Source: an uncultured Thermoleophilia bacterium
GTDB lineage: Bacteria; Actinomycetota; Thermoleophilia; RBG-16-64-13
Assembly (NCBI GenBank): GCA_963749535.1
Contig: CAVVNF010000018.1
Location: 3,877-67,876 of the forward strand
Length of the DNA stretch: 64,000 bases
Direction: 5' to 3'
The stretch's first letter is position 1; the number at the start of each line of letters is the position of its first letter. Below the pieces are notes generated by a model. It saw nothing but the letters and a program-made list of their open reading frames with translations, was not told the DNA's origin and ran no database searches. The position numbers were made by a program, and so were the translations under genes. Of this stretch, positions 4,714 through 62,353 are shown in pieces.

Positions 4714-4904
4714 CCGCCGTTGCGGCAACGGGGGCCGGGCGAATCCCGGCGGCATCCATCCGCGGTCAATGGGCCTCTCTCCCCCGCCACCGCTTGTGCG
4801 AACCCATACGTGGACCTAATCGCCCAGGCTCGCGGGGTGAGATCAATCACCGGGTCATCGAGCGGCGGGGTGGCAACCGGAAGAGGCAGGCGGACGAGCC
4901 ATGA
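4710..4904 (+). CDS. hypothetical small protein (64 aa), translationally coupled on both sides
   Basis: ATGA overlaps at 4710-4713 and 4901-4904 link it to its neighbours. No recognisable motif. Confidence 0.4.
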   Translation: MTAVAATGAGRIPAASIRGQWASLPRHRLCEPIRGPNRPGSRGEINHRVIERRGGNRKRQADEP

Positions 4905-45552: not shown

Positions 45553-45553
45553 C

Positions 45554-46342: not shown

Positions 46343-46493
46343 CGCTCTAAAGACCCCGCCTCATTCGCCTGGAGGCTGGGGGCGCCCGCCCGTCCCGGGC
46401 GGGCGCCCCGCTTGGTGTTCGGCTAATCTAGTTGGCTATCGCCACGCCGAACCCTACTTGTCGCAGCTTGGACTTGGTCGCGGCTTGAACCAG

Positions 46494-47642
46494 TTAGGGC
46501 GCGTAGTAGAAGCCGGCGTCCGGCACTTTGCCGCCGATGACCTCCGGCGACAGAGTGGCCAATTGCGCGAGGAAGGTATCGACATCCTTGCGGGCATCCG
46601 CCGCGGGCGTGAACTTCCACGTGATGTTCTTGAGAGACGCAGTCATGGGGGCGGCCTTGAGGCCGAGTTGCGGGAATTGCGTCTCGATCAGCTTGCCGGC
46701 GGCCTCCGGGTTGGCGAGCATCCAGGCTACAGCCACCTGGTACTGTTTGAGAAAGTCAGCGATCACGGCCGGCTTGTCGAGCATGGTGGCCGTAGCCACG
46801 GTGCCGGCGATCGGGCTGAGATTCGCCCCGCCGGTCGCCTGTTGCCAGCCGGCGTCGAAGCTGAGCGCCCTGTAGAGTTTGGTCTTTGAATTCTGGCTCT
46901 GGAGGATCGAGGCCGTCGCCATCGGCTCGCTGAGCACCGCGTTCTGCACTTTGCCGGCCAAGAGCAGCTGCGACGCCTGAGTGGGATCTGTCGCGTAGCG
47001 CACCGTGAAGTCTTTCTGCGGGTCGAGCCCTTCTTTCTTGGCGATGTATTGGAACATAAGGTCTGGCACGCTGCCCTGGAACGGGACAGCAATGGACTGG
47101 CCCTTGATGTCCGCGAAGCTCTTGGCGCTCGCGTCGCTCGACACGAGATACGTTATGTTCCAAACGGTGATGTCCAGCAGTTTGATGGAAACGCCTTTGT
47201 TATAGAAGATGGCCGCGTTGTTGGACGGCATGGTGACGAAGTCGCCCTGCTTGCCGGCGACCATCGCCTGCAGCTGCGTCGGGTTCTCCCACACCACTAC
47301 GTCCGTCTTGTCGGCGACGGCCGACAGCAAGTTGTTGGCCGCGATGTAGGCCATGGGGATAGCCATGGGGCCGGGCGGCGCGACAAGGGTGATCTTGGCC
47401 AGCTTCGCTCCGCCGGCGACAGTCGTGGAGCTGGAGCTCGCGGCGGTCGTGGTGGGGCCGCCGGCGGTCGTAGTGGGACTGGTGGAAACCGTCGTCGAAC
47501 CGGCCGGCGACGTGGTCGGGGTGGACGAGCCTGAGCCGCACCCGATAGCAACCACCGCTGTTATCAAAAGCGTCACGGCGAGACCGATCACCAACGTCCG
47601 CCGCGACCTGGCCACCGGGTGGCTCCTCAGGGAATATGTCAT
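46494..47642 (-). CDS. lipoprotein substrate-binding protein (NMT1/SsuA-like)
   Basis: Lipobox VVAIGCGSG, Thr/Ser-rich linker, then a type-II PBP core. Confidence 0.75.
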   Translation of the reverse strand: MTYSLRSHPVARSRRTLVIGLAVTLLITAVVAIGCGSGSSTPTTSPAGSTTVSTSPTTTAGGPTTTAASSSSTTVAGGAKLAKITLVAPPGPMAIPMAYIAANNLLSAVADKTDVVVWENPTQLQAMVAGKQGDFVTMPSNNAAIFYNKGVSIKLLDITVWNITYLVSSDASAKSFADIKGQSIAVPFQGSVPDLMFQYIAKKEGLDPQKDFTVRYATDPTQASQLLLAGKVQNAVLSEPMATASILQSQNSKTKLYRALSFDAGWQQATGGANLSPIAGTVATATMLDKPAVIADFLKQYQVAVAWMLANPEAAGKLIETQFPQLGLKAAPMTASLKNITWKFTPAADARKDVDTFLAQLATLSPEVIGGKVPDAGFYYAP

Positions 47643-47703
47643 CAATCTTTTCCTTCTTGCACGCACGCTCCCCGCGCACATGATCGTTCGGCGGAACTAC
47701 AGT

Positions 47704-47961
47704 CTAAACTTGGAGGAAGTCCATCCTCTTTACATCGACGCCATGCAAGGTTTGAAGCTCGGCATAAAACGCTTCGACCGTGGCTTCGTCCCCAAAGACA
47801 TCAAGAAGTACCAGCCCGCTCGGCGAGCAGCTCGTGGCGTCCGCGTCGTGGATACCCAGTCTGGTGCGGATGTTGCAGCCATACTTTGTGAACGTCGCCT
47901 GCACTGACGGCACGTTCTCCGTGCGATGAGTGATATGGACGCCGAAGATGTGGTGTTGCAC
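47704..47961 (-). CDS. TM1266-like small regulator (putative iron-only hydrogenase system regulator family)
   Basis: 85 aa. The pattern FGVHITHRTENVPSVQATFTKYGCNIRTRLGIH...GLVLLDVFGDEATVEAFYAELQTLHGVDVKRM resembles the ACT/NikR-C-like TM1266 family as I recall it. Confidence 0.45.
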   Translation of the reverse strand: MQHHIFGVHITHRTENVPSVQATFTKYGCNIRTRLGIHDADATSCSPSGLVLLDVFGDEATVEAFYAELQTLHGVDVKRMDFLQV

Positions 47962-48147
47962 GACGATTCCTCCTCTTGTGTTCGGGCCCCTTGGAACGTT
48001 TTGCGGCCTGGTCCTCCGCCGAGCCGTCCTTGACGCTCCCGGTCGGGATTCTCACGGCTTCGTGCACATGTTCCCGAATGGACTCTAAGTCTACCCTAGT
48101 CGCGATTTTCAACGGCCAATGGCGGCTCCTCGAGACTGAGTCGGCGG

Positions 48148-48227
48148 TTTTGTGCGACTTTGCACTTGACTCCTATACCCGCAAAGAGTAATTTGTGAAA
48201 CACGTAACAGTGTTACTCATGTAACGG
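48148..48227. promoter_or_regulatory. three Rex-box-like inverted repeats overlapping a candidate promoter, in the divergent intergenic region
   Basis: Box C is TTTTGTGCGACTTTGCACTT (48148-48167). Candidate promoter is TTGACT (48166-48171), 17 nt, TAATTT (48189-48194). Box A is TTGTGAAACACGTAACAG (48193-48210). Box B is GTGTTACTCATGTAACGG (48210-48227). Compare the Rex consensus TTGTGAA-N4-TTCACAA / TTGTTAA-N4-TTAACAA. Confidence 0.35.
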
Positions 48228-48268
48228 CCGCCCGAGCTGCCAAAGCGGGCGAGCCGAGAGAAGGATCG

Positions 48269-49354
48269 GTGGCTCAGGCGGGAAAGCCAATAGTGTCTCG
48301 AAAGACGGTGGGGAGGCTCAGCCTCTACCGTCGGCTCCTGGATCTCCTCCGAGAGTCCGGGACCATGCATGTGTATTCCCATCAGCTGGCGCATCTGGCC
48401 GGGGTGAGCGCGGCCCAGGTACGGCGAGACTTCATGACCATCGGCTACTCGGGCAGCCCGAACCGCGGCTATGAGGTCAAGACGTGTCTCGAGAGCATCG
48501 GAAGCCTGCTCGACGGATCGGGCTGTCAGGACGTGGCTCTCGTGGGAGTCGGGCGTCTCGGCCGGTCCCTACTGGCCCACTTCTCGAACAAGCAACAGAT
48601 GCTGCGCATCGCCGTCGCCTTCGACACCGACCCAGCCGTCGTCGGCGGATCGTTGGACGGTTGTGAGATTCACGCAGTCGAGACCATCGAGAAAGTCGTG
48701 GACGAAAGAGGGATCCGCATCGGTATCCTCGCCGTGCCTCCGGAGGCAGCGCAGCCGGCGGCAGCCGCGCTGGTACGAGCCGGCGTGAGAAGCATCGTGA
48801 ATTTCGCGGCGGTTCCCCTCCGCGTCCCCGACGATGTCTTCGTGGACTATATGGACATCACGTCCGCCGTCGAGTCCGCGGCATTCTTCGCCCGGGACGA
48901 CGGCGACAAGGATTCGGCCCCTGAGGACGTGCCCGAGACCGAGATGGACCCCATCATCCGCACCATCGATTCGCTTTTGGCGAGGACGAACATGAAGCTC
49001 GAAGAATTGGCGCAAAGGATCGGTGCCCGCGTGCTCGCTCCGGGAGCCCCGGGCGGCACCGAGGTGACCAAGGTCTACGCAGGCGACCGCGTGAGCGACC
49101 TGCTCAACGAGGCATCCAACAAGACCTTGCTTGTGACCAACCTGGCGAACCTGCAGATGGTGCGGGTCGCGGAACTGATGGACGTGCCGGGTATCTGCTT
49201 CGTCGACGGGATCGACCCGGAACCGGACATCATCGAGCTCGCACGGGCCAACAACACGGTGATCCTGGTCTCACCCGTGGGAGTCTTCGAGACCTGCGGC
49301 CTTATCTTCCAGATCCTTTCCGAAAACGGCCAGAAACAGGCGGAGCCGCAATAG
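48269..49354 (+). CDS. rex: redox-sensing repressor Rex fused to a C-terminal DRTGG-like domain (361 aa, intact)
   Basis: Rex region: TVGRLSLYRRLL...YSHQLAHLAGVSAAQVRRDF...VALVGVGRLGRSLL...VNFAAVPL. About 130 extra C-terminal residues follow: GDRVSDLLNEASNKTLLVTNLANLQMVRVAELMDVPGICFVDGIDPEPDIIELARANNTVILVSPVGVFETCG. Confidence 0.85.
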   Translation: MAQAGKPIVSRKTVGRLSLYRRLLDLLRESGTMHVYSHQLAHLAGVSAAQVRRDFMTIGYSGSPNRGYEVKTCLESIGSLLDGSGCQDVALVGVGRLGRSLLAHFSNKQQMLRIAVAFDTDPAVVGGSLDGCEIHAVETIEKVVDERGIRIGILAVPPEAAQPAAAALVRAGVRSIVNFAAVPLRVPDDVFVDYMDITSAVESAAFFARDDGDKDSAPEDVPETEMDPIIRTIDSLLARTNMKLEELAQRIGARVLAPGAPGGTEVTKVYAGDRVSDLLNEASNKTLLVTNLANLQMVRVAELMDVPGICFVDGIDPEPDIIELARANNTVILVSPVGVFETCGLIFQILSENGQKQAEPQ

Positions 49355-49361
49355 CCAAGCC

Positions 49362-51375
49362 ATGGAATTCGTCTCCTACGACATAAAGAGCAGTGACTTC
49401 GACGCGGCGGGAGCGGCTTCCAGCGCCATCAAGGAGCAGCTGAAGCGTATCGGGGCGGACGCGGAGAGCATCCGGCGCACGATGATCGCAGCGTACGAAG
49501 CGGAGATGAACGTGGTGATCCACGCGCATGGCGGCCGCCTGGAAGCCTCGCTTTCGGACGACCGCCATCGACGTCGATGTGATCGATGAGGGGCCGGGCA
49601 TCCCCGACATCGAGCTGGCCATGAAGGAAGGTTTCTCCACGGCCAGCTCCGAGGCGCGGGCCCTCGGCTTCGGGGCGGGCCTGGGTCTGCCGAACATCAA
49701 GAAGAACAGCGACCGCCTGAGGGTGACCTCCCGCGTGAGCGAAGGCACCCGGGTGAGCTTCACCGTCTACCTCAAGCGAGAATCGGCGTGTGCGCCGAGC
49801 ATCGTCTCCCTCGCTGCCTCGACGGAAGACTGCCGCGATTGCCGCCGCTGTCTGGTGGCCTGTCCGACACATGCGGTGCGGGTGAGGAACGGCCGGCCCT
49901 CTGTCCTGGAGCACCTATGCGTGGACTGCACGAGCTGTATCGCAGCGTGCTCGTCGAAGGCCCTCACCGTGCGAGACGATGTCTCCTCGTTGGCGGAGCT
50001 GAAGAACATCGGCGAACTGGTCCTGGCGGTGCCTCCCGGGCTCCTTGCCAGTTGCGGAACCGGGCTTTCCCCTGCCCGGGTTCTCCAAGGATTGCGGAGG
50101 CTCGGATTCGCGGACGTCATCACCGTGGCGCCCTTTGAGCGCGCGCTCCGGCGGGCGGTCTTGACTTCGGCCAACGAGAACGCTGGGGACGGCCCGGAAG
50201 CACGGGAACTACCGATCATATCCCCGGCCTGCCCCGCCGTGGTGAACCTCATCGAGCTCAAGTATCCTTCGCTCCTTCCGCAGTTGGCACCTTTTGACTC
50301 CCCCTGGGAGGCCCTGCAGGCATCCCAGGCCGATCGCCGCGTCGCGTACGTCGTGTCCTGCCCAGGCCAACGCTCGGTACTCGTGGCCCACGAACCGGCG
50401 GACAGCGCAGGCAGCTGCGTCGAGCCAGGTGCCGTGTATCTCTCCCCCGGCCTCGTCCGCGATGCGGTCATGGCTCTTCTGGCTGCGGAGGGCCGAGAAC
50501 CCGCGACAGCCGGGCCGGCTGGAAGCGCAAAGGCGAGCGCAGAAGGCGGGGCCGACCACTCGACGGCGGACCTCGGACACGTGCTCACCGTCACCGGCAT
50601 GGAGCACGTCATGGCTGTGCTCGAGCAGATCGAGAACGGGCTGTTGACCGATGCCGAGGTGGTTGAACTCTACGCGTGCGCAGGTGGCTGCTTCGGCTCG
50701 CCGCTCCTACCCCTGGATTTCCACGTGACTGCCCGTCGTTGGGCCCAACAGGAATCGTCAACAGCCTGCTGCGGCGAAATGCCGGCAGCGCTCTCCCGGC
50801 GGCGCCCTTACGCCGCTCGTCCGGGGATACGCCTGGACCCGGACATGGCGCGCGCCATCGAAAAGCTCGGCCGGATGCAAGCGCTCACCCGTTCGCTACC
50901 CGGCAAAGACTGTGGTACGTGCGGCGCCCCCACCTGTGCAGCGCTGGCCGAGGACATCGTGATGGGGCGAGCGACGGCTGAGCTCTGCCCCTACTGCGAT
51001 AACGAGAAGGAGGCGCGGGACATGAGACTGCAGGAGCTCGTCCAGAGCTTTGGATCTCCGGAACTCACCCCCAGCGTGGCCGGCAACAACGACGCCGAGA
51101 TCGCGTACGGCTATGCCTCCGATCTGCTCAGCGACGTGCTCGCCCACGCCCCCGCCGGCGGGGTGCTCGTCACGCTGCAGGTGCACCTCAACGTGATCGC
51201 CGTGGCGAGCCACGCTGGCCTGAGGGCCGTCATCTTCTCGTCCGGCCGCCTCCCCGAGGACGACATCTCTCCCGAGGCGGCGGACGAGGGCCTCTCTCTC
51301 TTCGTGTCACCGGCGGACACCTTCGACATCGTCGGCCGACTGTATCAACTCGGGGTGAAGGGACGGGCTACGTGA
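49362..51375 (+). CDS. multidomain Fe-S sensor-like protein: GHKL (RsbW-like) ATPase + 2x[4Fe-4S] ferredoxin + HydS-like [FeFe]-hydrogenase H-domain homolog + Cx2Cx4Cx16C Fe-S motif + DRTGG-like domain; one frame break near 49560
   Basis: GHKL: EAEMNVVIHA, DEGPGIPD, GFGAGLGLPNI. Ferredoxin: CRDCRRCLVACP and CVDCTSCIAACS. H-domain-like motifs: ISPACPAVVN (L1-like, relay Cys replaced by Ala), VVSCPGQ (L2-like), ELYACAGGCFGSP (L3-like). Fe-S motif: DCGTCGAPTCAALAEDIVMGRATAELCP. DRTGG-like tail: SDLLSDVLAHAPAGGVLVTLQVHLNVIAVASHAGLRAVIFSSGRLP. Confidence 0.8.
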
Positions 51376-51396
51376 GCCGCGCCCCACACGGAAATC

Positions 51397-52178
51397 ATGC
51401 CTGAAGGACGGACGAGATTCCATGGCAGACCGCCTGCGACATGCGCAGCGGACTTGCACATCCACACGGCGCTGTCGCCCTGTGCGGAGCGACGAGATGA
51501 CGCCCCGCGCCATCGTGGAGGCTGCCTTGGCCCGAGGGCTTGACATGATCGCCATCTGTGACCACAACAGCGCGCGCAACGCCGCCGCCGTGCAGGAGGC
51601 GAGCGGGGAACGCCTGGCCGTTCTCGCCGGCATCGAGATAACGAGCGCGGAAGAGGTCCACGTGGTCGGTCTTTTCCCCGACGCGGCCGCGGCCGAGGCG
51701 GCGGGGTCGGAGATCGCTCCGCTCCTTGGCGACGCCGATAGCGGCTACACGGCGTTCTTCGGCGAACAGCAGGTCCTCGACGCCGAGGGCCGCGTACTCG
51801 ACACCGAGACTGCGGCGCTTGCCTTCGCCACTTCGCTCGAGGTGGACGCGGTGGTCGATCTGGTCCACCGGCACGGCGGTCTGGCGGTGGCGGCGCACAT
51901 CGACCGCAGGGCTTTCAGCGTGTTCTCCCAGCTCGGGTTCTTTCCGACCGAATCGGGTTTCGATGCGGTGGAGATCACTCCGTTCACCGGGGATGATTCG
52001 CCGCGAATGGCGGAATTCGCAGGCTCTGGGCCTGCCCATGACTGCAGCTCGTCCGACAGCCACTACCTCGAAGACATCGGGGCTGCCACGACGAGACTCA
52101 CCGTCGAAGTAGCGACCTTCGCCGAGCTGGCCCTGGCTTTCGCCGGCGCCGAAGGGAGGGCGATCGGTCGATGCATGA
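51397..52178 (+). CDS. PHP-domain phosphoesterase; frame break near 51490; 3' end uncertain
   Basis: ADLHIHTALSPCAE then a shift to MTPRAIVEAALARGLDMIAICDHNSARN...GIEITSAEEVHVVGLF...AAHIDR. Confidence 0.7.
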
Positions 52179-52668
52179 TGTGTCCCTCTATCTGCTCGAC
52201 GTCGCTCGAGAACTCAGTGCGCGCAGGCGCGACGCGCATAAACGTTGGTCTTCGCATCGACCACGCTTCCGACGAGTTGGAGCTGACGGTCGATGATGAC
52301 GGACGGGGTTTGAACGTCGACCCCTGAGCGGATCCTCGATCCCTTCTTCACTACGAAAGAAGGCAAGAAGACGGGACTTGGACTAAGCCTCCTGAGAGCG
52401 GAGGCCGAAGCAGCCGGAAGGGGGGCTCACCATCGGTCCCTCCCCCACCCTCGGTGGGGCCCGAGTAGATGTCACCATGCGCCTCGGCCACGTGGACAGA
52501 CCGCCCCTCGGCGATCTGGCCACGACTCTTGTGGTCACGGCGGTGACGAACCTAGATGTCTTGTTCACTATCAGCCTCGAGGGCGATGAGTTCGGGCAAC
52601 CACTCATCGAGGCACCGCTCACCGAAGCGACCGAACTTCTCCTGCACTGCGCGGAGCGGCTCGCATGA
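52171..52668 (+). CDS. stand-alone histidine-kinase-like (GHKL) ATPase domain protein; about 3 frame breaks
   Basis: MHDVSLYLLDV.LENSVRAGATRINVGL...LELTVDDDGRGLNVDP.RILDPFFTTKEGKKTGLGLSLLRAEAEAAG (N, G1 and G2 boxes). No DHp/His box. Confidence 0.65.
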
Positions 52669-52759
52669 GGCAGCGGCAGCCCTTACCAAGAGCGAAACAG
52701 TCGAAGCGCAGCCCAGGCCCGGGGACGCGCATGTTCAGGTCGGCCAAGGAGGCAACGGC

Positions 52760-53323
52760 ATGACGGCGGAGGCAGAGAATCGGGACGTAAAGTGCACGTG
52801 CTGCGAGGAAGCCTCGGAGGAGGAACTTCTCGCACGGCTCGACGACGTCATCGCCGGTACAAGGAAAAGCCAGGAGCTCTGATCCCGGTGCTGCAGCTCG
52901 CCCAGGGCATCTTCGGGTACCTGCCCGAGGTGGCTCTCAAGCAGGTCGCGACGCGAGCATGCGCAAGCCCTACAGCGAAGTGGCCGGCGTGGTGGGCTTC
53001 TACTCGTTCTTCACCACCGTCCCGCGCGGCAAGCAACCTCATCCGCGTCTGCCTGGGCACCGCCTGCTACGTGCGCGGCGGCATGAACGTGCTCGAGTCG
53101 CTCAAGAAGGAGCTGGGCATCGACGTCGGCGAGCACCACGGAGGACCGCGAGTTCTCGCTCGAGGTCGGCTCGCTGCTTCGGCGCCTGCGGCCTCGCCCC
53201 GGTGATCACGGTCGACGACGACGTCCACCACCGCGTCAAGCCGAAGCGCGGATCCGCGAGATCCTCGCCCAGTACGCACGCAGGAAGCCTTGGAAGCTGC
53301 CGTTGCGTGAGAGGAGCGCCTGA
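52760..53323 (+). CDS. hydC: HydC / NuoE-like [2Fe-2S] subunit of a multimeric [FeFe]-hydrogenase; about 3 frame breaks
   Basis: ATG behind AAGGAGG. Motifs KPGALIPVLQLAQGIFGYLP, IRVCLGTACYVRGG, GRCFGACGLAPV (assembled across frames). Stop overlaps the next ATG (TGATG). Confidence 0.85.
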
Positions 53324-53700
53324 TGGCCGACAAGATCAAGAGTGCCGCCGACCTGCTCGCCCTGGCCCAGAAGGCCAAGGCGGACGTCGACCTGCGCTCG
53401 GGCGCCAAGGAGATCACAGGTGACCGTGCACATGGGCACCTGCGGCATCGCCGCCGGCGCCCGCGACGTGGTGGCCGCTTTCCTGCTCCGAGCTGGCCGA
53501 GGCCAGGGCTCGACAACGTGACCGTCGCGCCAATCCGGCTGCGCCGGCCTCTGCGAGAAGGAGCCCATGGTGACCGTCACGTGACGCCGACGGCGCCGTG
53601 TACCACTACGGGCTGCTCGAGACGGAGCAAGGTCCACAAGATCGTCGAGGAACATCTGGTGGGCGGGGTCCCGGTGGACGCCTACCTCATCAAGCATCGT
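53323..53700 (+). CDS. small thioredoxin-like [2Fe-2S] ferredoxin (HndB-like); frame breaks, 3' end approximate
   Basis: MADKIKSAADLLALAQKAK...VTVHMGTCGIAAGARDVVAAF ... GCAGLCEKEPMVTV ... VHKIVEEHLVGGVPVDAYL. Confidence 0.6.
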
Positions 53701-53737
53701 AGCCGTCGATGTGGATCAGAGATCGAAGGAACCAGAT

Positions 53738-56700
53738 ATGAACGAAATCAAGAACCATGTTCTGATCTGCACAGGCGGCGGCTGCATCGCCTCCGGCGCT
53801 CTCGCGGTGAGCGCCGCCTTCACCAAGGAGCTGGAGGACCAGGGCCTCGCCGGGGAAGTCGCGGTCATCGAGACCGGCTGCCTCGGCCCGTGCGCGGTGG
53901 GCCCGGTGGCCCTCGTCTACCCCGACGGCGTCTTCTACCAGAACATCAAGGTCGAGGACGTGCACGAGATCGTGGAGGAGCACCTGCTCAAGGGCCGCGT
54001 GGTCGAGCGCCTCGTGAGCCACGCCCCAGGCACCGACAAGACCTTCGCCGAGATGCAGCGACGTGGAGTTCTTCAACCGCCAGGTGAAGATCGTGCTGCG
54101 CAACTCGGGCATCATCGACCCGCTCAAGGTCGAAGAGTACATCGCCCGCGAGGGCTACCAGGCGCTGGCCAAAGTCCTCACCGAGATGACCCCCGACCAG
54201 GTGGTCGAGCGAAGTGCTTCGCAGCGGCCTGCGCGGCCGCGGCGGCGCCGGCTTCCCCACCGGCCTCAAGTGGAAATTCGCCCGGCAGACCGAGTCCGAC
54301 GTCAAGTACATCCTCTGCAACGCCGACGAAGGCGACCCGGGCGCCTTCATGGACCGCTCGGTGCTGGAAGGCGACCCGCATAGCCTCATCGAGGGCATGG
54401 CCATCGGCGCCTACGCGATCGGCGCGCACGAGGGCTTCGTCTACCTGCGCGCCGAGTACCCGCTGGCCGTGGAGCGCCTCCAGTACGCCATCGACCAGGC
54501 GCGCGACTTCGGCCTGCTCGGCAAAGACATCATGGGCAGCGGCTTCGACTTCGACCTGGAGATCCGCATGGGCTCCGGCGCCTTCGTCTGCGGCGAGGAG
54601 ACGGCCCTCATGAGCTCCATCGAGGGTGGCCGCGGCGAGCCCCGGCCCCGCCCGCCGTTCCCGGCGGTCAAGGGTCTCTGGGACAAGCCCAGCGTGCTCA
54701 ACAACGTCGAGACCTTCGCCAACATCGCCCCGATCATCCTCAAAGGCGCGGAGTGGTTCGCCAGCACCGGCACCGAGAAGAGCAAGGGCACCAAGGTCTT
54801 CGCCCTCGGCGGCGCCATCCAGCACGCCGGCCTGGTCGAGGTGCCCATCGGCATGCAGCTGGGCGAGATCATCTACGAGATCGGCGGCGGCGTCCCCGGC
54901 GACAAGGCGTTCAAGGCCGTGCAGCTCGGCGGCCCTTCCGGCGGCTGCATCCCCAAGCAGCACCTCAACGTGCCCGTCGACTACGAATCGCTGCAGGAGC
55001 TCGGCGCCATCATGGGCTCCGGCGGCTTCATCGTCATGGACGACGACACCTGCATGGTGGACATCGCCCGCTACTTCCTCGACTTCATCCAGGACGAGAG
55101 CTGCGGCAAGTGCCCGCCCTGCCGGGTCGGCACCAAGCGCATGCTCGAGATCGTCACCCGCATCTGCAACGGCGAGGGCGAAGAAGGCGACATCGAGAAG
55201 CTCATCGACCTCGGCAAGACCATCCAGGACACCGCGCTGTGCGGCCTCGGCCAGACGGCGGCCAACCCGGTGCTGTCGCACCATCCGCCACTTCCGCCAC
55301 GAGTACGAGGCCCACATCCGCGACCACTACTGCGAGGCCGGCGTCTGCTCGACCATGTTCAGCGCTCGCTGCTCCAACGCCTGCCCGGCGAGCGTGAACG
55401 TCCCCGGCTTCGTGAGCCTCATCGGCGAGAAGCGCTTCGACGAGGCCTTGACGCTGCACCGCGAGCGCAACCCGCTGGCCAGCATCTGCGGCCGCGTGTG
55501 CTTCCACCCCTGCGAGAGCAAGTGCCAGCGCGCCGCCCTCGACGACGCCGTCGCCATCCGCGGCGCTCAAGCGCTTCATGACCGAGCAGGAGAACGACGC
55601 CGCAACTGCCGAAAGTCCTGGAAAACGCCGAGAACGCCACGCGCAAGATCGCCGTGATCGGCAGCGGGCCGGCCGGCCTCTCCTGCGCCTACTTCCTCGC
55701 CCGTCTGGGCTACAAGCCCACCATGTTCGAGAAAGAGGCCAGCCCCGGCGGCATGCTCGTGCAGGCGATCCCGGCCTACCGCCTGCCGCGGGAGGAGCTC
55801 GGCCGCGAGATCAGCATGATCGAAAGCATGGGCGTCACGATCAAGACCGGCAAGGCGCTCGGCCGCGACTTCACCCTGCACAGCTGAAAGACCAGGGCTA
55901 CGAGGCAGTGTTCCTGGGCGTGGGCGCCCCGCAGGGCGTCGAGCCTCGGCCTGCCCGGCGAGGATGGCGAGGGCGGTCAGTCGACGGCTCTCAGCTTCCT
56001 CGCGCAGTACAACGTGCACGGCGACCGCCTGGGTGGGCGAGCAGGTCGCCGTCATCGGCGGCGGCAACTCGGCCATCGACGCGGCCCGCACCGCCCTGCG
56101 CCTCGGCGCCAAGAAGGTCACCATCCTCTACCGCCGCCAGCGCGCGCAGATGCCCGCCTGGGCGAGGAGATCGACGCCGCCGACCTCGAGGGCATCGAGA
56201 TCATGCCGCTGGTCGCGCCCGAAGGAGATCGTCCGCGACGCGGCCGGCAAGGTTACCGGCGTGCTCTGCCAGCAGATGGTGCTGGGCGACTACGACAGGA
56301 GCGGCCGTCGCCGTCCCGTGGCCGGCCGCAATCCCGACTTCATCGTGGCGTGCGACCAGGTCATCGCCGCTATCGGGCAGTCGCTCGACGCAGACAGGCA
56401 TGCTCGGAGGCTCTTCCGCTCGAGATGCGCAACGGCTGGATCAAGACCGATCGGGCCGACCGGCGCCACCAGTCGTCGACTGGGTCTTCGCCGGCGGCGA
56501 CGCCGCGACCGGTCCCGCATCGGTGGTGGAGGCCATCGCCGCCGGCGAGAAGGCCGCGGTCGCGATCGACGAACGGCTGAGCGGTGCCAACCATGCGTTC
56601 TGGCGCCGCGACGTGGAGGTCGACTGCTACTTCGATCCCGACGCCGATCCCTGCAATACCCCGAGCGGCGGTCGTCGGCTGTGTCGACCCCAGCGTGCGG

Positions 56701-56822
56701 ACCTGCAGCTTCGACGAGGTCGAGCTGCCCTGGGATATGGATGTCGCGCTGGCAGAGGCCAAGCGTGCCTGCGTTGCGACTACGGCAAGGTCCCGGCCCT
56801 CGCTGAGACCAAGGAGATATGA
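53738..56822 (+). CDS. hydB: HydB/NuoF-like flavoprotein subunit fused to a GltD/NfnB-like NAD(P)H oxidoreductase domain; at least 12 frame breaks
   Basis: N-terminal Trx-like [2Fe-2S]: [15 protein letters not shown]...[10 protein letters not shown]. NuoF core: [37 protein letters not shown] continuous ORF piece runs across the junction: [82 protein letters not shown]. GltD-like motifs follow: [67 protein letters not shown]. Confidence 0.85.
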
Positions 56823-56823
56823 G

Positions 56824-58609
56824 ATGCCTGCCCTGACTATTGACGACATCAAGGTCGAGGTGCCCGAAGGCACGACCTTGCTCGACGCCTGCCGCCAGGT
56901 GGGCGCCAGGGTCCCCACTCTGTGCTACCTGGAAGGCGTGCAGTGCCATCGGCGCCTGCCGGGTGTGCCTGGTGGAGGTGGAAGGCGCGCGCGACGCTGG
57001 TCGCCTCCTGCGCTCAACCCGCCACCGAGGGCATGGTGGTCAAGACCAATTCGCCTCGCGTGCGCAAGGGCCGGCAGACCGTGGTCGAGCTGCTCCTGTC
57101 CGAGCACGACGGCGATTGCCAGACCTGCGACCGCAACGGCGACTGCGAGCTGCGCCAGCTTGCCTACGACCTGGGCATCGACGAGATCACGCTACGAGGG
57201 CGAGCGGACCCGCAAGATCGTCGACAGCTCCACCCCGGCCCTCGTCCGCGACACCGGCAAGTGCATCATGTGCCGGCGGTGCGTCACGGTCTGCAACGAG
57301 ATGCAGGGCGTGGGCGCCCTCTTCCCGCAGGATCGCGGCTTTGCCACGGTAATCGGCCCCGCGTTCGCCAGCAACCTCAGCGACGTGGTGTGCGTGCAGT
57401 GCGGCCAGTGCGCGGCCGTCTGCCCCGTCGGCGCGATCACCGAGAACAGCGCGATCGACCAGGTCTGGGCCGCCCTCGACGACCCCGACCAAGCACGTGA
57501 TCGTGCAGACCGCGCCCGGCCATCCGCGGCGCTCTGGGCGAGGAGTTCGGCTACGAGCCCGGCACGCTGGTCACCGGCAAGATGGTCGTCAGCCCTGCGC
57601 CGGCTCGGCTTCGACGCGGTGTTCGACACCAACTTCACCGCCGACCTCACCATCATGGAGGAGGGCACCGAGCTGCTGACCCGCCTGAAGAAGGCCCTGG
57701 TCGACGGCCAGACCGGTGGCGCTGCCCATGTTCACGAGCTGCTCTCCCGGCTGGATCAACTACATGGAGCACTTCAACCCGGACATGCTCGCCAACCTGT
57801 CCACCTGCAAGTCGCCCGCAGCAGATGTTCGGCGCGCTGGCCAAGACCTACTACGCCGAGAAGCTGGGCAAGAAGCCCGAGGACATCGTCGTGGTCTCGG
57901 TCATGCCGTGCACCGCCAAGAAGTTCGAGTGCAGCCGTCCCGAGATGACCGACAGTGGCGTGCAGGACGTCGACATGGTGCTCACGACCCGTGAGCTGGC
58001 GCGCATGATCAAGCAGGCCGGCATCGACTTCGCAGCCTGCCCGACGACAAGATGGACGCGCCGCTGGGCATCTCGCACCGGCGCGGCCGACATCTTCGCC
58101 GTCACCGGCGGCGTGATGGAGGCGGCGCTGCGCACGGCCTACGAGATCGTCACCGGCAAGCCGTTCCCGTTCGAGAACCTGCACGTCAAGCCCATCGCAG
58201 GGCCTCGAAGGCGTGAAGGAGGCCGCGGTGACCGATCGAGGACGACCGTGCCCGAATGGGCGTTCCTCGAGGGCGCCACGCTCAAGGTCGCCGTGGCCCA
58301 CGGCCTGGCGAACGCCCAGAAGGTCATCGACAGGATCCGCAGCGGCGAGGCGCCAGTACCACTTCGTCGAGGTCATGACCTGCCCCGGCGGCTGCATCGG
58401 CGGCGGCGGCCAGCCGCGGCTGACCTCCAACGCCGTGCGCGAGGCCCGCATCCGCGCCATCTACGCCGAGGACGAGGGCCGCGAGCTGCGCAAGTCGCAC
58501 GAGAACCCCGAGGTGCTCAAGCTGTACGAGGAGTTCCTCGGGGCAGCCGCTCGGCGAGAAGTCTCACAAACTGCTGCACACCAAGTACACCGAGAAAGAG
58601 CGCGTCTAG
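56824..58609 (+). CDS. hydA: [FeFe]-hydrogenase catalytic subunit (M3-type with C-terminal small-subunit-like tail); at least 8 frame breaks
   Basis: N-terminal clusters: IGACRVCLVEVEG, LLLSEHDGDCQTCDRNGDCELRQ, GKCIMCRRCVTVC, VCVQCGQCAAVCPVGAI. H-cluster motifs: FTSCSPGW, VMPCTAKKFE, EVMTCPGGCIGGGGQP. Tail: SHENPEVLKLYEEFLG. Confidence 0.9.
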
Positions 58610-58644
58610 TGAGCCAAGGCCCGATGCTATTCGTGGAGACAGCC

Positions 58645-59109
58645 ATGACCGCGGATAGCCCCGCACTCATACTCATCGTCGACGACGACTATGACTTCCT
58701 CGAGATCAACCGCATGATCCTCGAGCGGGCGGGTTATCGCGTTGTCACGGCTTCCGAGCCCGGCCAGGCCCTTGCCAAGATGGAGAACGAGAAGCCCGAC
58801 CTGGTCATCACCGACCTGATGATGACGAGCCTCGACTCAGGCTTCTCGTTCTCCCGCACGATCAAGACCGACCCGCGTTTCGCGGATGTGCCCGTCATCA
58901 TCTCGACGTCGGTGTCGAGCGCCCTTGGCCTCGACTTCCGGCCGCGCTCCGCCGAGGACCTGGCGAAGATGAACGTCGACGCCTACTTCGACAAGCCCCT
59001 CGACGCCCGGCGCCTGCTGGCCAAGGTCGCCGAGCTGCTTGCGGCGCGGCGCGAGGCCGCGGCCGGCCGAGCGTGCGACACGGCCGGCGCCGCACCCGAG
59101 GACAGCTGA
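58645..59109 (+). CDS. single-domain response regulator (receiver only); alternative start 58624
   Basis: LILIVDDDYDFLEI...PDLVITDLMM...VPVIISTS...DAYFDKP. Confidence 0.8.
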   Translation: MTADSPALILIVDDDYDFLEINRMILERAGYRVVTASEPGQALAKMENEKPDLVITDLMMTSLDSGFSFSRTIKTDPRFADVPVIISTSVSSALGLDFRPRSAEDLAKMNVDAYFDKPLDARRLLAKVAELLAARREAAAGRACDTAGAAPEDS

Positions 59110-61140
59110 TGCCGACGGTAGACAATCCGCTCGTCACGACCATCGGCGAGAGGTGCCGCATGTGCTACGCGTGCGTGCGCGAGTGCCCGGCCAAAGCCAT
59201 CCAGATCGTCGACGGCCAGGCCAGCGTCATCCAGTCGCGCTGCATCGGCTGCGGCAACTGCCTCCGGGTCTGCAGCCAGAACGCCAAGCAGGTCCGTCGA
59301 CGACACCGAGCGGGCTTTCGACCTGCTCGGCTCGCGCGACAGCGGCCGCGGCGATCGTGGCCCCGAGCTTCCCGGCCGAGTTCACCGATATCGAGCCGGG
59401 ACGGCTGGTGGCGATGATCCGCGAGCTCGGCTTCGCCGTCCGTGCACGAGGTGGGCTCTCGGCGCCGACCTGGTCGCCCACGAATACGCCAGGCTGCTCG
59501 GAGCGCGAGCCGACAGAGCCGCTACATCGCCACTCCCTGCCCGGCGGTGCAGTCGCTACGTGCGCAAGTATCACCCCGAGCTCACGCAGTTCCTCGGCGC
59601 CGATCGTCTCGCCCATGGTGGCGATGCGCGCGGGCGCTCCGCCACGATCTGGGCCGACGATCTTCAAGTCGTCTTCATCGGCCCCTGCATCGCCAAGAAG
59701 GGCGAGGCCAGCATCGACACGACCCATGTCGAGATCGACGCGGTGCTCACGTTCGCGGAACTGCGCGAGATGTTCGAGCAAGCGGAGATCGTCGCCGGCG
59801 CGGTAGACCCGGACGATGATTTCGATCCTCCGTACGGCGGCGTGGGAGCGGTATTTCCCATCTCGGGCGGACTTCTGCAGACCGCCGGACTTCAACAGGA
59901 CCTGCTGAGCGGTGAGATAGTCGTGGCCGAGGGGCGCGACGAGTTCGTCGATGCGATCAAGGAGTTCGACGTGGCCCACGAGGATGCCCGTCTCTGGACG
60001 TGCTGTCGTGCCAGGGTTGCTTCGCAGGCGTAGGCATGACGACCAAGGATACGAACCTCCAGCGCCGGACCCGCATCAGCAACTATGCCAAGAACCGGAT
60101 CGCCGGATTCAGCGACGAGCAGAGAGCGGACGTCGCCAACGCGTACGAACGTTATGCCGACCTCGACCTTTCCCGCACGTTTCGGCCCGACATCCAGACG
60201 CTGGGCGCGCCTGCGACCGCCGAGGAACTCAAGGAGATCCTGCGAGCGGATGGGCAAGCACAGCGAGGAGGACTTGCTCAACTGCGGGGCCTGCGGCTAC
60301 GACACCTGCCTGGACCATGCGCGTGCGGTTTACGCTGGTGTCGCCGACTCAGAGATGTGCCTTCCCAGCACCATCGAGCAGCTGCGCGCCGCCTACGGCC
60401 AGCTCGAGGAGTCTCACCGCTCGCTGGAGGAAGCCAAGGAAGCTCTCGAGAAATCGGGCAGGCTCGCGAGCATGGGTCAGCTGGCCGCCGGCATCGCCCA
60501 CGAGGTGAACAATCCGCTCGGCATCCTGCTGCTGCATGCCAATCTCGTGCTCGAAGAATGTGAGGAGCAATCCCAGGTCCACGAGGACCTCGAGACCATC
60601 GTCGACCAGGCGAACCGCTGCAAGCGCATCATCTCCGGTCTGCTCAACTTCGCCCGCCAAAGCCGGGTGGTCCGCCAGCCGACCAACCTCGTCGATCTGG
60701 TGCAGAAGGTACTGCACACCACTCCGATCAGCGAGGGCATCGAGGTGCGGGTCGACGACCAGCTGGAAGACCCGGTGGCCGAGATCGACTCGGATCAGAT
60801 AGTCCAGGTGCTTACGAACTTGTTGAGCAACGCCCAGCACGCGATGCCCGAGGGCGGCAGCATCGTGGTCGGATTGAGCGACAAGCCGGAAGAGGTCATC
60901 ATCCAGGTCACCGACAGCGGCAGCGGGATCCCGGACGAGAACATGGCGAAGCTGTTCGACCCGTTCTTCACCACCAAGCAGGTGGGCATGGGCACCGGCC
61001 TGGGGCTGGCCGTGACCCACGGCATCGTCAAGATGCACCGCGGCCAGATCACGGTCCAATCCAACCAGGATCCGGAAAAGGGCCCGACCGGCACCACATT
61101 CACGGTCAGCTTGCCGCGTTACGAGGAGCGCCCGGCCTAA
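59109..61140 (+). CDS. sensor histidine kinase whose input is ferredoxin + HydS-like H-domain homolog + Cx2Cx4Cx16C motif; at least 5 frame breaks in the N-terminal half
   Basis: Ferredoxin: CRMCYACVRECP and CIGCGNCLRVCS. H-domain-like motifs: IATPCPAV (L1-like), VVFIGPCIAKKGE (L2-like), DVLSCQGCFAG (L3-like). Fe-S motif: NCGACGYDTCLDHARAVYAGVADSEMCLP. A coiled coil leads straight to the kinase: H box AAGIAHEVNNPL, N box LLSNAQHAM, G1 DSGSGIP, G2 GTGLGLAV. TGATG overlap with the receiver gene. Confidence 0.8.
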
Positions 61141-61162
61141 AACGGCGAAAGTTGAGGACCTC

Positions 61163-62353
61163 GTGGGATCTCAGGAGCAAGTGGTCAGAGTCGCCATGGT
61201 GGACGACGAGGAGCCGCTCTGCCTGGGCGTGCGCCGCATTCTTGCCAAATACAACGTGCACGTGCCCGATGTCAGTGTCGACGCTTCCTACGATTTCACG
61301 TACTTCACCACCGGGGAGCGCTTCCTGGAAGCGATTGCCGCGGGCGACCAGTTCGACCTCCTCCTCTGGACCTCAAGCTGCCCGGGATGAGTGGGCTGGA
61401 TATCCTGACCGTGCTCAACCATCAGAACCGGCCGATCCTCACCATCATGATCACCGCGTACGCCACCTTCGAGACGGCGGTCCAGGCTACCAAGCTCGGA
61501 GCCTACGACTTCCTGCCCAAACCGTTTTCCCCGGACGAGCTCCGGTACGCGGTCCGCAAAGCCACCGACCAGTTGATCCTCAGCAAGGAGGCCCGGCGGC
61601 TGGCGGAGGAGAAACGTCAGGTTCGCTTCAACTTCATATCCGTCCTGGCCCACGAGCTCAAAGCACCGCTCAATGCCATCGAGGGCTACCTCCGGATCTT
61701 GCAGACCGACGAGCCACCCGAGCGCAAGCAGATGATCGATCGGAGCCTGATCCGGCTGGATGGGATGAAGAAGCTTATCTTCGACCTCCTCGACCTCACG
61801 CGTATCGAGTCCGGCCAGAAGGTGCGTAATTTCGTTCCGGTGGATGTCCGAGCGCTCGCGAAATCGGCGGCGGACCTGTTCTCGGCCGAGGCGGCGGAAC
61901 GGCACATCACGATCGACTTGAAGCCAGAGGGCCCGGTGGAGATGGTGGCGGATCCCAGCGAGATCGAGATCGTCCTCAACAACCTCATATCGAACGCGGT
62001 CAAGTACAACCGAGACGGCGGCAGCGTGACGGTCGAGATCCGTCGGCGACGACGGAACGCTCAAAGTCTCTGTGACCGACACCGGCATCGGCCTGGCTCC
62101 CGAGGAGGCCGCCAAGCTCTTCTCGGAGTTCGTCCGCATCAAGAACGAGGACACCATCAAGGTCATCGGCAGCGGCCTGGGGCTCTCCACCGTCCGCAAG
62201 CTCGCTCAACTTTACGGCGGAGATGCAACGGTCGTCAGTACGAAGGGGTCGGGGAGCACGTTCACCGTGACCTTACACGATACCCTGCCTGGTCTACCGC
62301 CTCCGGCCAAAACGCCGGCAGAGCGCGACGTCGAAGCCGGAACGGTCCGTTAG
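61163..62353 (+). CDS. hybrid receiver-histidine kinase (REC-HisKA-HATPase); two frame breaks
   Basis: Receiver: VAMVDDEEPL...DLLL.DLKLPGMSGLD...FLPKPF. Kinase: H box ISVLAHELKAPLNAI, N box LISNAVKYN, G1 DTGIGL, G2 GSGLGLS. Confidence 0.8.

Follow-up and report, generated by a model that had tools for sequence, protein, structure and literature searches.

A conserved Thermoleophilia operon that surrounds a multimeric [FeFe]-hydrogenase with Rex, two putative H-domain sensors and a predicted His-Asp relay

What is already known about sensory [FeFe]-hydrogenases?

The closest described counterparts of the system discussed here are the putative sensory [FeFe]-hydrogenases of groups C and D (M2f and M2e), and genome surveys have already placed several of them beside kinase-like domains and larger hydrogenases. 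In Thermoanaerobacter, a group D hydrogenase and a kinase-like gene lie upstream of a bifurcating hydrogenase (Land 2020, PMC8163306; Verbeke 2013, PMC3608648); in Elusimicrobia, a HATPase-fused group C hydrogenase is the neighbour of a trimeric group A enzyme, and Rex is close by (bioRxiv 10.1101/765248); and in Hydrogenedentota, C1 proteins carry HATPase_c and C3 proteins a histidine-kinase domain (PMC11406978). Here we consider a locus of this general kind in the DNA of an uncultured Thermoleophilia bacterium (GCA_963749535.1, contig CAVVNF010000018.1, positions 3,877 to 67,876), and we call the whole 64,000-nucleotide stretch that was analysed the window. Up to position 62353, downstream of a single Rex-box promoter region, twelve genes on the + strand encode a multimeric hydrogenase together with a Rex repressor, two H-domain proteins (sensor 1 and sensor 2), a pair of DRTGG domains, a PHP-family protein, a GHKL ATPase and a set of His-Asp signalling proteins. 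The explanation that fits the whole best, and that we would back at slightly better than even, is that of an NAD(P)H-linked multimeric [FeFe]-hydrogenase encoded together with its own control apparatus, proposed to integrate H2 and NADH.

It has to be said that the original prediction for this DNA presented the architecture as unexplained novelty, and this goes too far, because the general layout is already there in the surveys (group D with a kinase-like gene, HATPase-fused group C with Rex, and H-domain fused to kinase). It was right, on the other hand, that a signalling output is still undemonstrated for sensory [FeFe]-hydrogenases: we found no published mechanism, and the 2026 paper on TamHydS still calls for partners. 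What is new here is a DRTGG paralogue pair that is always present, and a series of contact predictions based on gene fusions. Our search of the open-access literature returned no Rex::DRTGG protein, DRTGG A/B pair, GHKL::HydC fusion, operon with both sensor types or HydB::GltD hydrogenase, and the copy of the PDB that we searched contained no solved structure of a group C or D sensor.

How is the operon built, and how widely is it kept?

In what follows, labels from L001 to L163 denote loci of relatives, and P-numbers (P0119, P0121 and P0361-P0460) denote relatives' proteins. Two references gave intact genes, namely L001, a clean 8.6-kb relative (GCA_936418975.1), and L004, from a short-read Gaiellales metagenome-assembled genome (MAG). 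The window's own genes were rebuilt by frameshift-aware protein-to-DNA alignment to clean relatives, and Pfam was run on stop-to-stop pieces of the window. These pieces contain every domain that had been listed for the locus, in the order stated: at the front, Rex (Put_DNA-bind_N and CoA_binding) with a weak DRTGG match, then HATPase_c_2/HATPase_c, Fer4, Fe_hyd_lg_C and FeS (PF04060), then PHP, then HATPase_c; in the middle, 2Fe-2S_thioredx (HydC), the NuoF domains with Fer4_20/Pyr_redox_2 (HydB::GltD) and the HydA domains; and at the end, Response_reg, then Fer4, Fe_hyd_lg_C, FeS, HisKA and HATPase_c, and finally Response_reg, HisKA and HATPase_c. Clean copies read rex::DRTGG-A, sensor 1, DRTGG-B, PHP, GHKL, HydC, ferredoxin, HydB::GltD, HydA, REC, sensor 2 and REC-kinase. 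The natural unit therefore has twelve genes, not the eleven first counted, because sensor 1 and DRTGG-B are naturally separate; and position 48148, at first taken as the start, falls in the promoter/operator region, with rex itself beginning at the GTG at 48269.

The four gene junctions that had been quoted are exact, with a TAG ending at 49354 and an ATG at 49362, TGATG overlaps at 53321-53325 and 59107-59111, and a TGA ending at 56822 followed by an ATG at 56824. Intergenic gaps run from -7 to 91 nucleotides, and a scan of the + strand between 48 and 62.4 kb found no intrinsic-terminator-like site. The idea of one transcription-unit-like block stands, in that the genes behave as one regulated unit with a single conserved Rex-box promoter, tiny gaps and a kept order.

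Relatives do share this order. A scan of a genome collection, anchored on sensor 2, gave 79 species-level loci, almost all of them from Thermoleophilia, Gaiellales or Actinomycetota MAGs, and in 53 of the 79 the eleven genes from sensor 1 to the REC-kinase stand in identical order; a further 22 are truncated and consistent with it, and four differ. A metagenome scan anchored on the C-terminal domain of Rex added 80 loci, and wherever the flank was long enough DRTGG-A was followed directly by sensor 1 and then, as far as the contig extends, by DRTGG-B, PHP, GHKL, HydC, ferredoxin, HydB~GltD and HydA, the exceptions being L104, with REC and sensor 2 after sensor 1, and L086 and L087, with nothing detected downstream. 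In all, the operon is kept in more than 100 related uncultured bacteria: the species-level MAGs of Thermoleophilia/Actinomycetota that have it number at least 75, and the metagenome contigs about 80. Gene order is conserved far beyond chance, and the locus is a genuine, vertically conserved operon of uncultured anaerobic Thermoleophilia-type Actinomycetota.

Are the two sensors hydrogenase H-domain proteins?

They are, and here the original prediction was well founded. Sensor 1 (49362..51024; 550 amino acids in clean copies) joins a SpoIIAB/RsbW-like GHKL Ser-kinase domain to two [4Fe-4S] clusters, a divergent [FeFe] H-domain and a C-terminal Cx2Cx4Cx16C cluster; in the window it has a +1 indel near 49560 and has lost its stop codon through a 2-nucleotide deletion near 51021. 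Sensor 2 (59109..61140; about 672 amino acids, rebuilt across 11 frame-shifting events) has two [4Fe-4S] clusters, an H-domain and the same type of Cx2Cx4Cx16C cluster, followed by HisKA and HATPase_c. Against a gathering threshold of 22.1 bits, Fe_hyd_lg_C scores 57 bits for sensor 1 in the window, where precomputed annotations call the match 'faint', and 58 bits for the window piece of sensor 2, which rises to 128 bits for the clean L004 copy. More tellingly, the four H-cluster cysteines (CpI C300, C355, C499 and C503) never vary in either sensor family, with 120 of 120 sequences in each and identities as low as about 50%, the register for sensor 1 being fixed by alignment to HDCR HydA2; and among 72 distant members of the sensor 2 type, C143, C191, C298 and C301 are nearly invariant (at least 90%). 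The AlphaFold model of sensor 1 (mean predicted local distance difference test score 85.8) resembles the [FeFe]-hydrogenases CbA5H, DdH, TmHydA and CpI over some 400 columns, with E values of 1e-9 to 1e-11.

Around this site, the residues have changed in a consistent manner. Position C299 is S, V, M or A in sensor 1 and P or A in sensor 2; the M353 position falls in a V/S region in sensor 1 and is Gly in sensor 2; M497 is Tyr and Leu, respectively; and K358 is replaced by Gln-Arg in sensor 1 and kept as Lys in sensor 2. The L3 motif has canonical spacing in sensor 1, and in sensor 2 (window about 59990-60010; P0121 residues 291-306) it reads D-[VI]-L-x-C-x-G-C, one residue shorter than the canonical E-x-M-x-C-x-x-G-C. 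The Cx2Cx4Cx16C motif (PF04060) has exact spacing and invariant cysteines in both proteins. Each sensor thus carries a complete predicted H-cluster-binding site and is devoid of the proton-relay Cys299. Cx2Cx4Cx16C together with loss of C299 is the mark of the putative sensory M2e/M2f classes (Land 2020, PMC8163306), and both sensors show the traits of groups C and D, with Cys299 lost, M353 and M497 altered and the C-terminal cluster motif present. The finer labels, C1-like for sensor 1 and C3-like for sensor 2, are taken solely from the domain descriptions in PMC11406978.

The kinase parts are equally well kept. The first 140 residues of sensor 1, which match PF13581, superpose on SpoIIAB with a TM score of 0.81-0.86 and a root-mean-square deviation of about 2 A (Foldseek), and the N, G1 and G2 ATP-binding motifs are invariant (N50, D75, G77, G79 and G102-G108). 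Across 120 sequences, sensor 2 shows no variation in its H-box (AHEVNNPL) or in its N, G1 and G2 boxes; HisKA and HATPase_c both score above the gathering threshold, and the closest solved structure is ZraS. An exhaustive search found full-length fusions of the sensor 2 kind down to 32% identity. We also counted the domains fused to sensor-2-type modules in 72 diverse members (alignment A2, P0361-P0460), a subset of 150 representatives: HisKA with HATPase_c was present in 47, PAS in 10, a sigma-54 activator in seven, REC in four and GGDEF in two. Fusion to so many signalling outputs fits what a sensor domain would lead one to expect. These proteins, among them the sigma-54 activator fusions (7/72), of the AAA+ type with HTH_8, and the GGDEF fusions (2/72), are one-protein candidate H2-responsive transcription factors and cyclases.

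Does Rex control the operon, and what do the DRTGG domains add?

The first gene, rex::DRTGG-A (48269..49354; 361 amino acids), is intact from its GTG start and is identified by Pfam, NCBIfam and a structure model as a winged helix and an NAD(H)-binding Rossmann fold (residues 1 to about 210), followed by a disordered linker and a C-terminal atypical DRTGG domain, which we call type A. PF06971 and PF02629 both exceed the gathering threshold, NCBIfam NF003995 gives 185.5 bits against a cut-off of 126, and the window's Rex is 94% identical to that of L001, with no frameshift. Its AlphaFold model matches 3KET, 1XCB and 3WG9 with TM scores of 0.75-0.8 (Foldseek), and among 60 homologues G93, G95 and G98 of the GxGxxG motif are invariant and the DNA-binding RLSLYRR motif is present.

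A putative promoter with tandem Rex boxes precedes it (48166..48226, + strand), recognised through conservation and a consensus match. The -35 hexamer TTGACT (48166-48171) and the -10-like TAATTT (48189-48194) come from conservation alone, and a consensus promoter scan of the + strand did not call them. Just after this TTGAC...TAAT block lie box 1, TGTGAAACACGTAACA (48194-48209), and box 2, TGTTACTCATGTAACG (48211-48226), arranged in tandem. The Rex operator has the form TTGTGAA-N4-TTCACAA, for example in S. aureus (PMC2883068); the sole match to the Rex consensus in the 64-kb window lies 60-75 nucleotides upstream of the rex start, with three mismatches to the strict form. Both boxes fit the lineage pattern with no mismatch, no other copy of which occurs in the 64 kb, and the second operator half-site has diverged to GTAAC(A/G) in this sub-lineage. 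The promoter and box block is conserved in L001, L081 and L082, and a box with up to three mismatches is found 40-145 nucleotides upstream of rex in 47 of 48 metagenome loci, as against 2 of 480 control windows; some of the metagenome loci carry perfect TGTGAA-N4-TTCACA sites. Autoregulation of the operon by Rex, through this predicted operator at the promoter, is thus well supported by sequence, and because the promoter is overlapped by two predicted Rex boxes, Rex::DRTGG-A should repress its own operon at low NADH/NAD+.

On the other side of the promoter region, two features run divergently on the - strand: a small open reading frame without a Pfam match (47704-48051; 82 amino acids in relatives) and an NMT1/phosphonate-type ABC transporter (44869-47696). 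The arrangement is kept in L001, L081, L082 and a MAG from LaPlata, and the shared intergenic region could place these genes under Rex as well.

The C-terminal domain of Rex is more conserved than the Rex core among the 60 homologues, and its model superposes on 3L2B/3L31 (2.2 A over 115-117 columns) and on 2IOJ (TM score 0.78), which are DRTGG domains from the CBS-pyrophosphatase of C. perfringens and from AF1212. A second such protein, DRTGG-B (51022..51375; 117 amino acids, likewise atypical), follows sensor 1, is 33% identical to the Rex C-terminal domain, making the two paralogues A and B, and carries an invariant GYASDLLSDVLA motif; where the domain's name has TGG, type A has TNL and type B has TLQ. 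The original prediction had read sensor 1 and DRTGG-B as a single GHKL-ferredoxin-HydS-DRTGG protein, which is most likely an indel artefact, two bases ('CT') being missing near 51021 relative to the nearest relatives, L001 and L068: the window's junction reads GGGAC-ATGAG, and both relatives have GGGACCTATGAG. In 103 of 104 loci the two are separate genes with an ATGA overlap, as in those relatives.

Two DRTGG paralogues always accompany sensor 1. DRTGG-A is fused to Rex in 46 metagenome loci and lies in the same frame as an adjacent Rex in ten more, and 16 have no same-strand Rex gene within 600 nucleotides upstream of it, L111 among them having a divergent rex nearby. L083, which has no Rex at the locus, is arranged differently: here a free 117-amino-acid DRTGG-A (52% identical to the window's Rex C-terminal domain) sits just upstream of sensor 1, and DRTGG-B, at 55% identity to its counterpart in the window, forms the C-terminal end of the sensor 1 protein itself (P0119). 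In the solved regulatory region of CBS-pyrophosphatase, DRTGG and DRTGG' contact one another, as part of a nucleotide-regulated allosteric insert. Because A is fused to Rex in some loci and B to sensor 1 in another, and because DRTGG domains dimerise, the fusions predict a chain of contacts from sensor 1 through DRTGG-B and DRTGG-A to Rex. DRTGG resembles a domain for dimerisation or an adaptor more than it does an output.

What kind of hydrogenase is being controlled?

Between DRTGG-B and the hydrogenase genes lie a PHP-family phosphoesterase (51422..52177; about 250 amino acids, with four frame-shifting events in two compensating pairs) and a stand-alone GHKL ATPase of the histidine-kinase CA type (52171..52668; 164 amino acids, three +1 indels). 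The PHP metal-ligand motifs HxH, DH and D.H are conserved, and its NCBIfam matches are all weak and below cut-off (RNase RNM, pAp phosphatase and CehA/McbA). The GHKL protein keeps its N, G1 and G2 boxes, and in seven loci (L081, L141, L149, L157, L159, L160 and L163) it is fused to HydC, as exemplified by an in-frame 371-amino-acid protein with HATPase_c and 2Fe-2S_thioredx at L081:12397-13512; because of these fusions we predict that it docks on the enzyme and belongs physically to the hydrogenase or bifurcation module. The three distinct output chemistries of the original prediction are in our view overstated, given that DRTGG looks adaptor-like and PHP resembles nucleotide phosphoesterases no less than anything else.

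The hydrogenase has a complete HydABC subunit set, with a HydA that bears the H-cluster site, a NuoF-like HydB and a NuoE-like HydC. hydC (52760..53323, 3' end approximate; eight frame-shifting events) encodes a NuoE-like thioredoxin-type [2Fe-2S] protein and begins with a visible ATG and ribosome-binding site. It is followed by a small Cys-rich ferredoxin-like gene (53323..53735, 3' end approximate; about 125-130 amino acids, five events) that had been labelled hndB-like, a label that we could not confirm: the clean L004 copy has no Pfam match and a weak NCBIfam match to the 2Fe-2S ferredoxin fdxn_Clost (27 bits), the L083 orthologue matches 2Fe-2S_thioredx weakly, and the protein has conserved HMGTCG and GC.G.CE motifs. 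The catalytic subunit, hydA (56824..58609; 590 amino acids, 14 events), contains 2Fe-2S, NuoG-type 4Fe-4S, 2x4Fe-4S, H-domain and small-subunit domains, has as its closest solved structure A. woodii HydA1 (7Q4V, E 3e-187), with which it shares a TSCSP motif, and scores 877 bits against a cut-off of 765 for NCBIfam NF040763, 'NADH-dependent [FeFe] hydrogenase, group A6'.

It is hydB::gltD (53738..56822; about 1027 amino acids, 15 events) that sets the enzyme apart. An N-terminal 2Fe-2S domain and the NuoF part (FMN/NADH) are followed by a GltD/NfnB-like module with two [4Fe-4S] clusters, FAD and NAD(P)H sites; the fusion is a single open reading frame in clean L004 (3543-6626), L081 and L083 (14545-17649), and is kept in more than 100 loci. 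In L004, NADH_4Fe-4S (442-526) leads directly into the GltD Fer4_20 (530-620) and Pyr_redox_2 domains, and no separate Fer4 domain stands for the 2x[4Fe-4S] ferredoxin-like domain in which HydB usually ends and where ferredoxin is proposed to bind. The core cannot therefore be taken as the established biology of HydABC, as it was at first, because HydB here bears a C-terminal GltD module instead of the ferredoxin domain. The HydB::GltD hydrogenase appears to be an uncharacterised type, one that may connect H2 with NADH and NADPH alike. A related observation comes from L081:13927-19376 (the L064 contig, from a Gaiellales MAG), where HydC, ferredoxin and HydB::GltD are followed by a formate/nitrite transporter, a rubrerythrin and a molybdopterin oxidoreductase in place of hydA, and where the same regulatory and NAD(P)H modules may serve a formate dehydrogenase.

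Where does the His-Asp relay belong?

Downstream of hydA come a stand-alone REC (58645..59109), intact and with its acidic pocket, phospho-Asp and K-P conserved, then sensor 2, and then a REC-HisKA-HATPase_c hybrid kinase (61163..62353; GTG start inferred, three frame-shifting events). A REC gene likewise comes after hydA in L083, a locus with no sensor 2 in the vicinity. We found no DNA-binding response regulator in the window or in the relatives' loci, which hold receiver-only proteins and the REC-kinase hybrid only.

The 3' flank of the window's locus has an unknown gene and a HAD hydrolase on the - strand. In relatives, a second cluster, REC-HydC2-HydB2-HydA2, lies directly after the REC-kinase in 46 of the 53 complete-order loci; it is inverted in the window's nearest relatives, and the window ends (64000) before its expected place. 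Because this second cluster adjoins the REC-kinase in relatives, the His-Asp genes there sit between two hydrogenases. In three loci, each with a free DRTGG-A and no Rex (L085, L096 and L137, about 4-8 kb), a histidine kinase, REC and REC-kinase are instead directly upstream of DRTGG-A and sensor 1. The notion of a circuit 'controlling its own hydrogenase' may for these reasons be too narrow, since the His-Asp genes of relatives either have a hydrogenase cluster on each side or precede the sensor-1 module. At L004:12216-16365 on the - strand, the second cluster reads REC-HydC2-HydB2 (short, without GltD)-HydA2 and is followed by HypE and HypF, and it has the same strand in L011, L012 and others. 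The two signalling modules also stay linked in L085, L096 and L137 despite the changed order.

How might H2 and NADH be integrated?

Our proposal for how such an apparatus could work runs as follows. The H-clusters would signal H2, or else the redox poise of H2/H+. Within sensor 1, this signal would alter how the SpoIIAB-like domain deals with DRTGG-B, in activity (phosphorylation) or in partner binding, and PHP would reset this step by removing phosphate or hydrolysing a nucleotide. DRTGG-B would pair with DRTGG-A on Rex in the manner of DRTGG-DRTGG' in CBS-pyrophosphatase, and H2 status would then tune the NADH-dependent DNA binding of Rex, so that transcription integrates H2 and NADH. The small GHKL ATPase would dock on HydC and act on the enzyme itself. 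Sensor 2 would autophosphorylate upon H2 and pass phosphate to the stand-alone REC and the REC-kinase; because the receivers have no DNA-binding output, their probable mode of action is contact with other proteins, namely those of this hydrogenase and of the second one next to it. An integrated H2/redox control unit is plausible and is strongly backed by conservation and fusions, with the chemistry predicted. Its most specific element, a heterodimeric DRTGG-A/B adaptor that couples the [FeFe] H2 sensor (through B) to the NADH sensor Rex (through A) under the control of the SpoIIAB-like kinase and PHP, is a tentative suggestion that we regard as possible.

A number of observations weigh against this picture, and they deserve to be set out together. 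The proposed protein contacts are predictions from gene fusions and conservation. The DRTGG assignments fall below the Pfam gathering threshold of 25.2 bits (20.0 for the Rex C-terminal domain and 24.4 for DRTGG-B of L004). The analogy to SpoIIAB is incomplete, in that neither the window locus nor any of the more than 150 related loci was found to encode a STAS antagonist, PP2C phosphatase or sigma factor. A phosphoprotein cycle is a guess, because PHP matches nucleotide phosphoesterases and RNases equally, below cut-off, and fits these as well as anything. Rex is not a universal output, given the at least 16 loci that have DRTGG-A without a same-strand Rex upstream; and the His-Asp genes stand elsewhere relative to the sensor-1 module in L085, L096 and L137 and beside the second hydrogenase cluster in most loci. 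Finally, the 2026 study of TamHydS reports that its C-terminal cluster is not reduced by H2, and interaction partners are still being sought.

Some of these points also feed the main rival, which is that the hydrogenase is capped by a regulatory unit made up of sensor 1, DRTGG-A/B, PHP and GHKL, a unit that gates electron flow or assembly by H2 and adenylate status, with Rex sensing NADH only and its DRTGG domain serving to tether Rex to the complex, to change its oligomeric state or to bind a nucleotide. The seven GHKL::HydC fusions speak for it, as do the module's unchanged form in those 16 or more loci without an adjacent same-strand Rex, the place of DRTGG in a nucleotide-regulated insert, the resemblance of PHP to nucleotide phosphoesterases, and stand-alone RECs that have no DNA-binding domain, one of which heads the second hydABC cluster. 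Yet DRTGG-A is fused to a DNA-binding repressor in most loci, and the extreme conservation of the domain argues that it modulates Rex; moreover, neither purified HydABC complexes nor the solved HydABC structures are known to include GHKL or DRTGG subunits. We consider the cap doubtful as an account of the accessory set, and continue to prefer an apparatus that reaches transcription through Rex.

Do the H-domains sense H2 at all?

A second alternative concerns the signal rather than the output. The H-domain proteins might be sensors of redox state (electrons or ferredoxin), or of O2 or CO, or else slow auxiliary hydrogenases, and the kinases would then follow the redox state of the Fe-S clusters. 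Each sensor has three accessory [4Fe-4S] clusters that could serve in this way, TamHydS retains catalytic activity and has a sensory role that is only putative, the Hydrogenedentota survey could hardly find H-cluster motifs in its group C1 proteins (PMC11406978), and sensor 1 is very divergent, as its low Fe_hyd_lg_C score attests. Against this, four H-cluster cysteines that are invariant in 240 sequences, to about 50% identity, and kept at 90% or more in the 72 distant members are hard to explain without use of the [2Fe] site, and the specific loss of the proton-relay cysteine matches slow-turnover, sensor-like enzymes. We think it unlikely that H2 is not the signal, and retain the reading in which both proteins respond to it.

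Could the locus be decaying?

The window as given does not make for easy reading, with long open reading frames absent for most of the genes named in the original prediction. It is GC-rich (0.59-0.69 per 2 kb), and in frame plots of GC content at third codon positions (GC3) the leading phase switches many times from 48.1 to 62.4 kb, with no gene boundary in between. The frameshift-aware alignment counted 64 frame-shifting events, 45 of them +1 insertions, mostly of a G or C just after a codon and outside long homopolymers. One falls in sensor 1, four in PHP, three in GHKL, eight in hydC, five in the ferredoxin gene, 15 in hydB::gltD, 14 in hydA, 11 in sensor 2 and three in the REC-kinase, and there are none in rex, REC or the upstream ABC-transporter genes; 63 of the 64 fall within 51.4-62.3 kb, where GC3 is 0.9-0.98, and a single one within 48.3-51.4 kb. 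The corrected proteins are 73-94% identical to those of relatives, the aligned coding regions have no stop codons, and all motifs are kept, and because of this we read the frameshifts as assembly or base-calling errors, not gene decay.

A literal reading of the open reading frames was dropped, as the GC3 plots and tblastn show frame switching, with tblastn crossing the shifts at falsely low identity. L068 was rejected as the source of the window at 88% nucleotide identity, and programmed frameshifting is not credible for 64 sites. The cluster of errors (51400-62350) may be a systematic base-calling or polishing artefact in GC3-rich genes, or may reflect interference from the paralogous hydABC cluster, which is about 75% identical; many related MAGs in the genome collection are long-read assemblies. 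That the frameshifts are real, and that this organism has only pseudogenes for the hydrogenase and the sensors, is very improbable: although the events cluster next to intact rex, REC and ABC-transporter genes and do not lie within long homopolymers, the corrected proteins (73-87% identical to relatives) have no premature stops and all their catalytic motifs, 64 indels without matching substitution decay are unlike pseudogene evolution, the +1 bias is strong, and the densest errors coincide with the highest GC3 in a collection whose relatives are often long-read MAGs. At the far end of the window, near its start, a tyrosine integrase (2196-3467, - strand) and a DnaG-type CHC2 zinc-ribbon protein (4841-7075, + strand) suggest an integrated mobile element.

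Why does it matter, and how does it compare with known systems?

If our proposal is true, the DRTGG adaptor would be the first defined signalling output of the group C/D sensory [FeFe]-hydrogenases, and the front half of the operon would amount to a new kind of partner switch, with DRTGG in place of STAS and PHP in place of PP2C, in which one repressor integrates H2 with NADH/NAD+. This clade has in effect carried out a set of natural experiments that name candidate partners, with the sensor fused to a histidine kinase, to a SpoIIAB-type kinase or to DRTGG-B, with DRTGG-A fused to Rex and with GHKL fused to HydC, and every one of these fusions predicts a contact between proteins that can be put to the test and that bears on the question of [FeFe] sensory signalling. 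If these predictions hold, they would tell us how H2 partial pressure and NADH/NAD+ together determine hydrogenase expression in anaerobes, which is relevant to syntrophy, to H2 cycling in soil and peat and to the engineering of H2 production; for the most part, the metagenomes that yielded the relatives are from soil, peat, sediment and digesters.

A functional analogy is with Cupriavidus necator, in which the slow regulatory [NiFe]-hydrogenase HoxBC, the histidine kinase HoxJ and HoxA control hydrogenase expression. The metal site and the protein family are unrelated, HoxA binds DNA whereas the receivers here have no DNA-binding domain, and HoxJ is bound to its sensor whereas the kinase of sensor 2 is fused to it.

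Among [FeFe] proteins, TamHydS of T. mathranii (group D/M2e) is alike in its N-terminal 2x[4Fe-4S], its H-domain without C299, its C-terminal Cx2Cx4Cx16C and the lack of PAS, and is likewise encoded beside a kinase-like ATPase and a multimeric group A hydrogenase. Compared by motifs and domains, it differs at M353/M497 (V or S/Y in sensor 1, G/L in sensor 2), and the kinase-like domain here is fused to the sensor, N-terminally as a SpoIIAB type or C-terminally as a HisKA type, with two sensors per operon. The group C HydS proteins (T. maritima TmHydS, R. albus HydS and those of Elusimicrobia and Hydrogenedentota) similarly have a sensor beside a trimeric group A enzyme, a fused HATPase or histidine kinase and Rex near, and TmHydS shares M353 = Gly with sensor 2; unlike them, the sensors here are PAS-free and Rex is fused to DRTGG, and the set of DRTGG-A/B, PHP and GHKL, as well as two sensor types in one operon, is absent from the descriptions in those group C papers.

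As for the enzyme, HydA is 50-60% similar to A. woodii HydA1, and the HydC/HydB core is that of the HydABC structures (A. woodii 7Q4V and T. kivui 8A6T), except that a GltD module on the HydB C-terminus replaces the ferredoxin-like domain. The Stn transhydrogenase (PMC10482914) also joins a GltD/NfnB-like NADPH module to a HydBC-type module, but in Stn the GltD part is on a NuoG-like subunit and not on HydB, and it is here that a true H-cluster subunit is present. In relation to the SpoIIAB/SpoIIAA/SpoIIE and RsbW/RsbV modules, the N-terminal domain of sensor 1 superposes on SpoIIAB, whereas its candidate partners are DRTGG proteins and a PHP phosphoesterase, with STAS, PP2C and sigma missing. 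Lastly, our Rex agrees with the Rex regulons of other anaerobes in fold, NAD(H) Rossmann motif and operator architecture, and its operator, like theirs, lies at a promoter that serves fermentative or hydrogenase genes, implying autoregulation; it departs from them in its diverged second half-site and in the extra C-terminal DRTGG-type domain of about 120 amino acids that follows the disordered linker.

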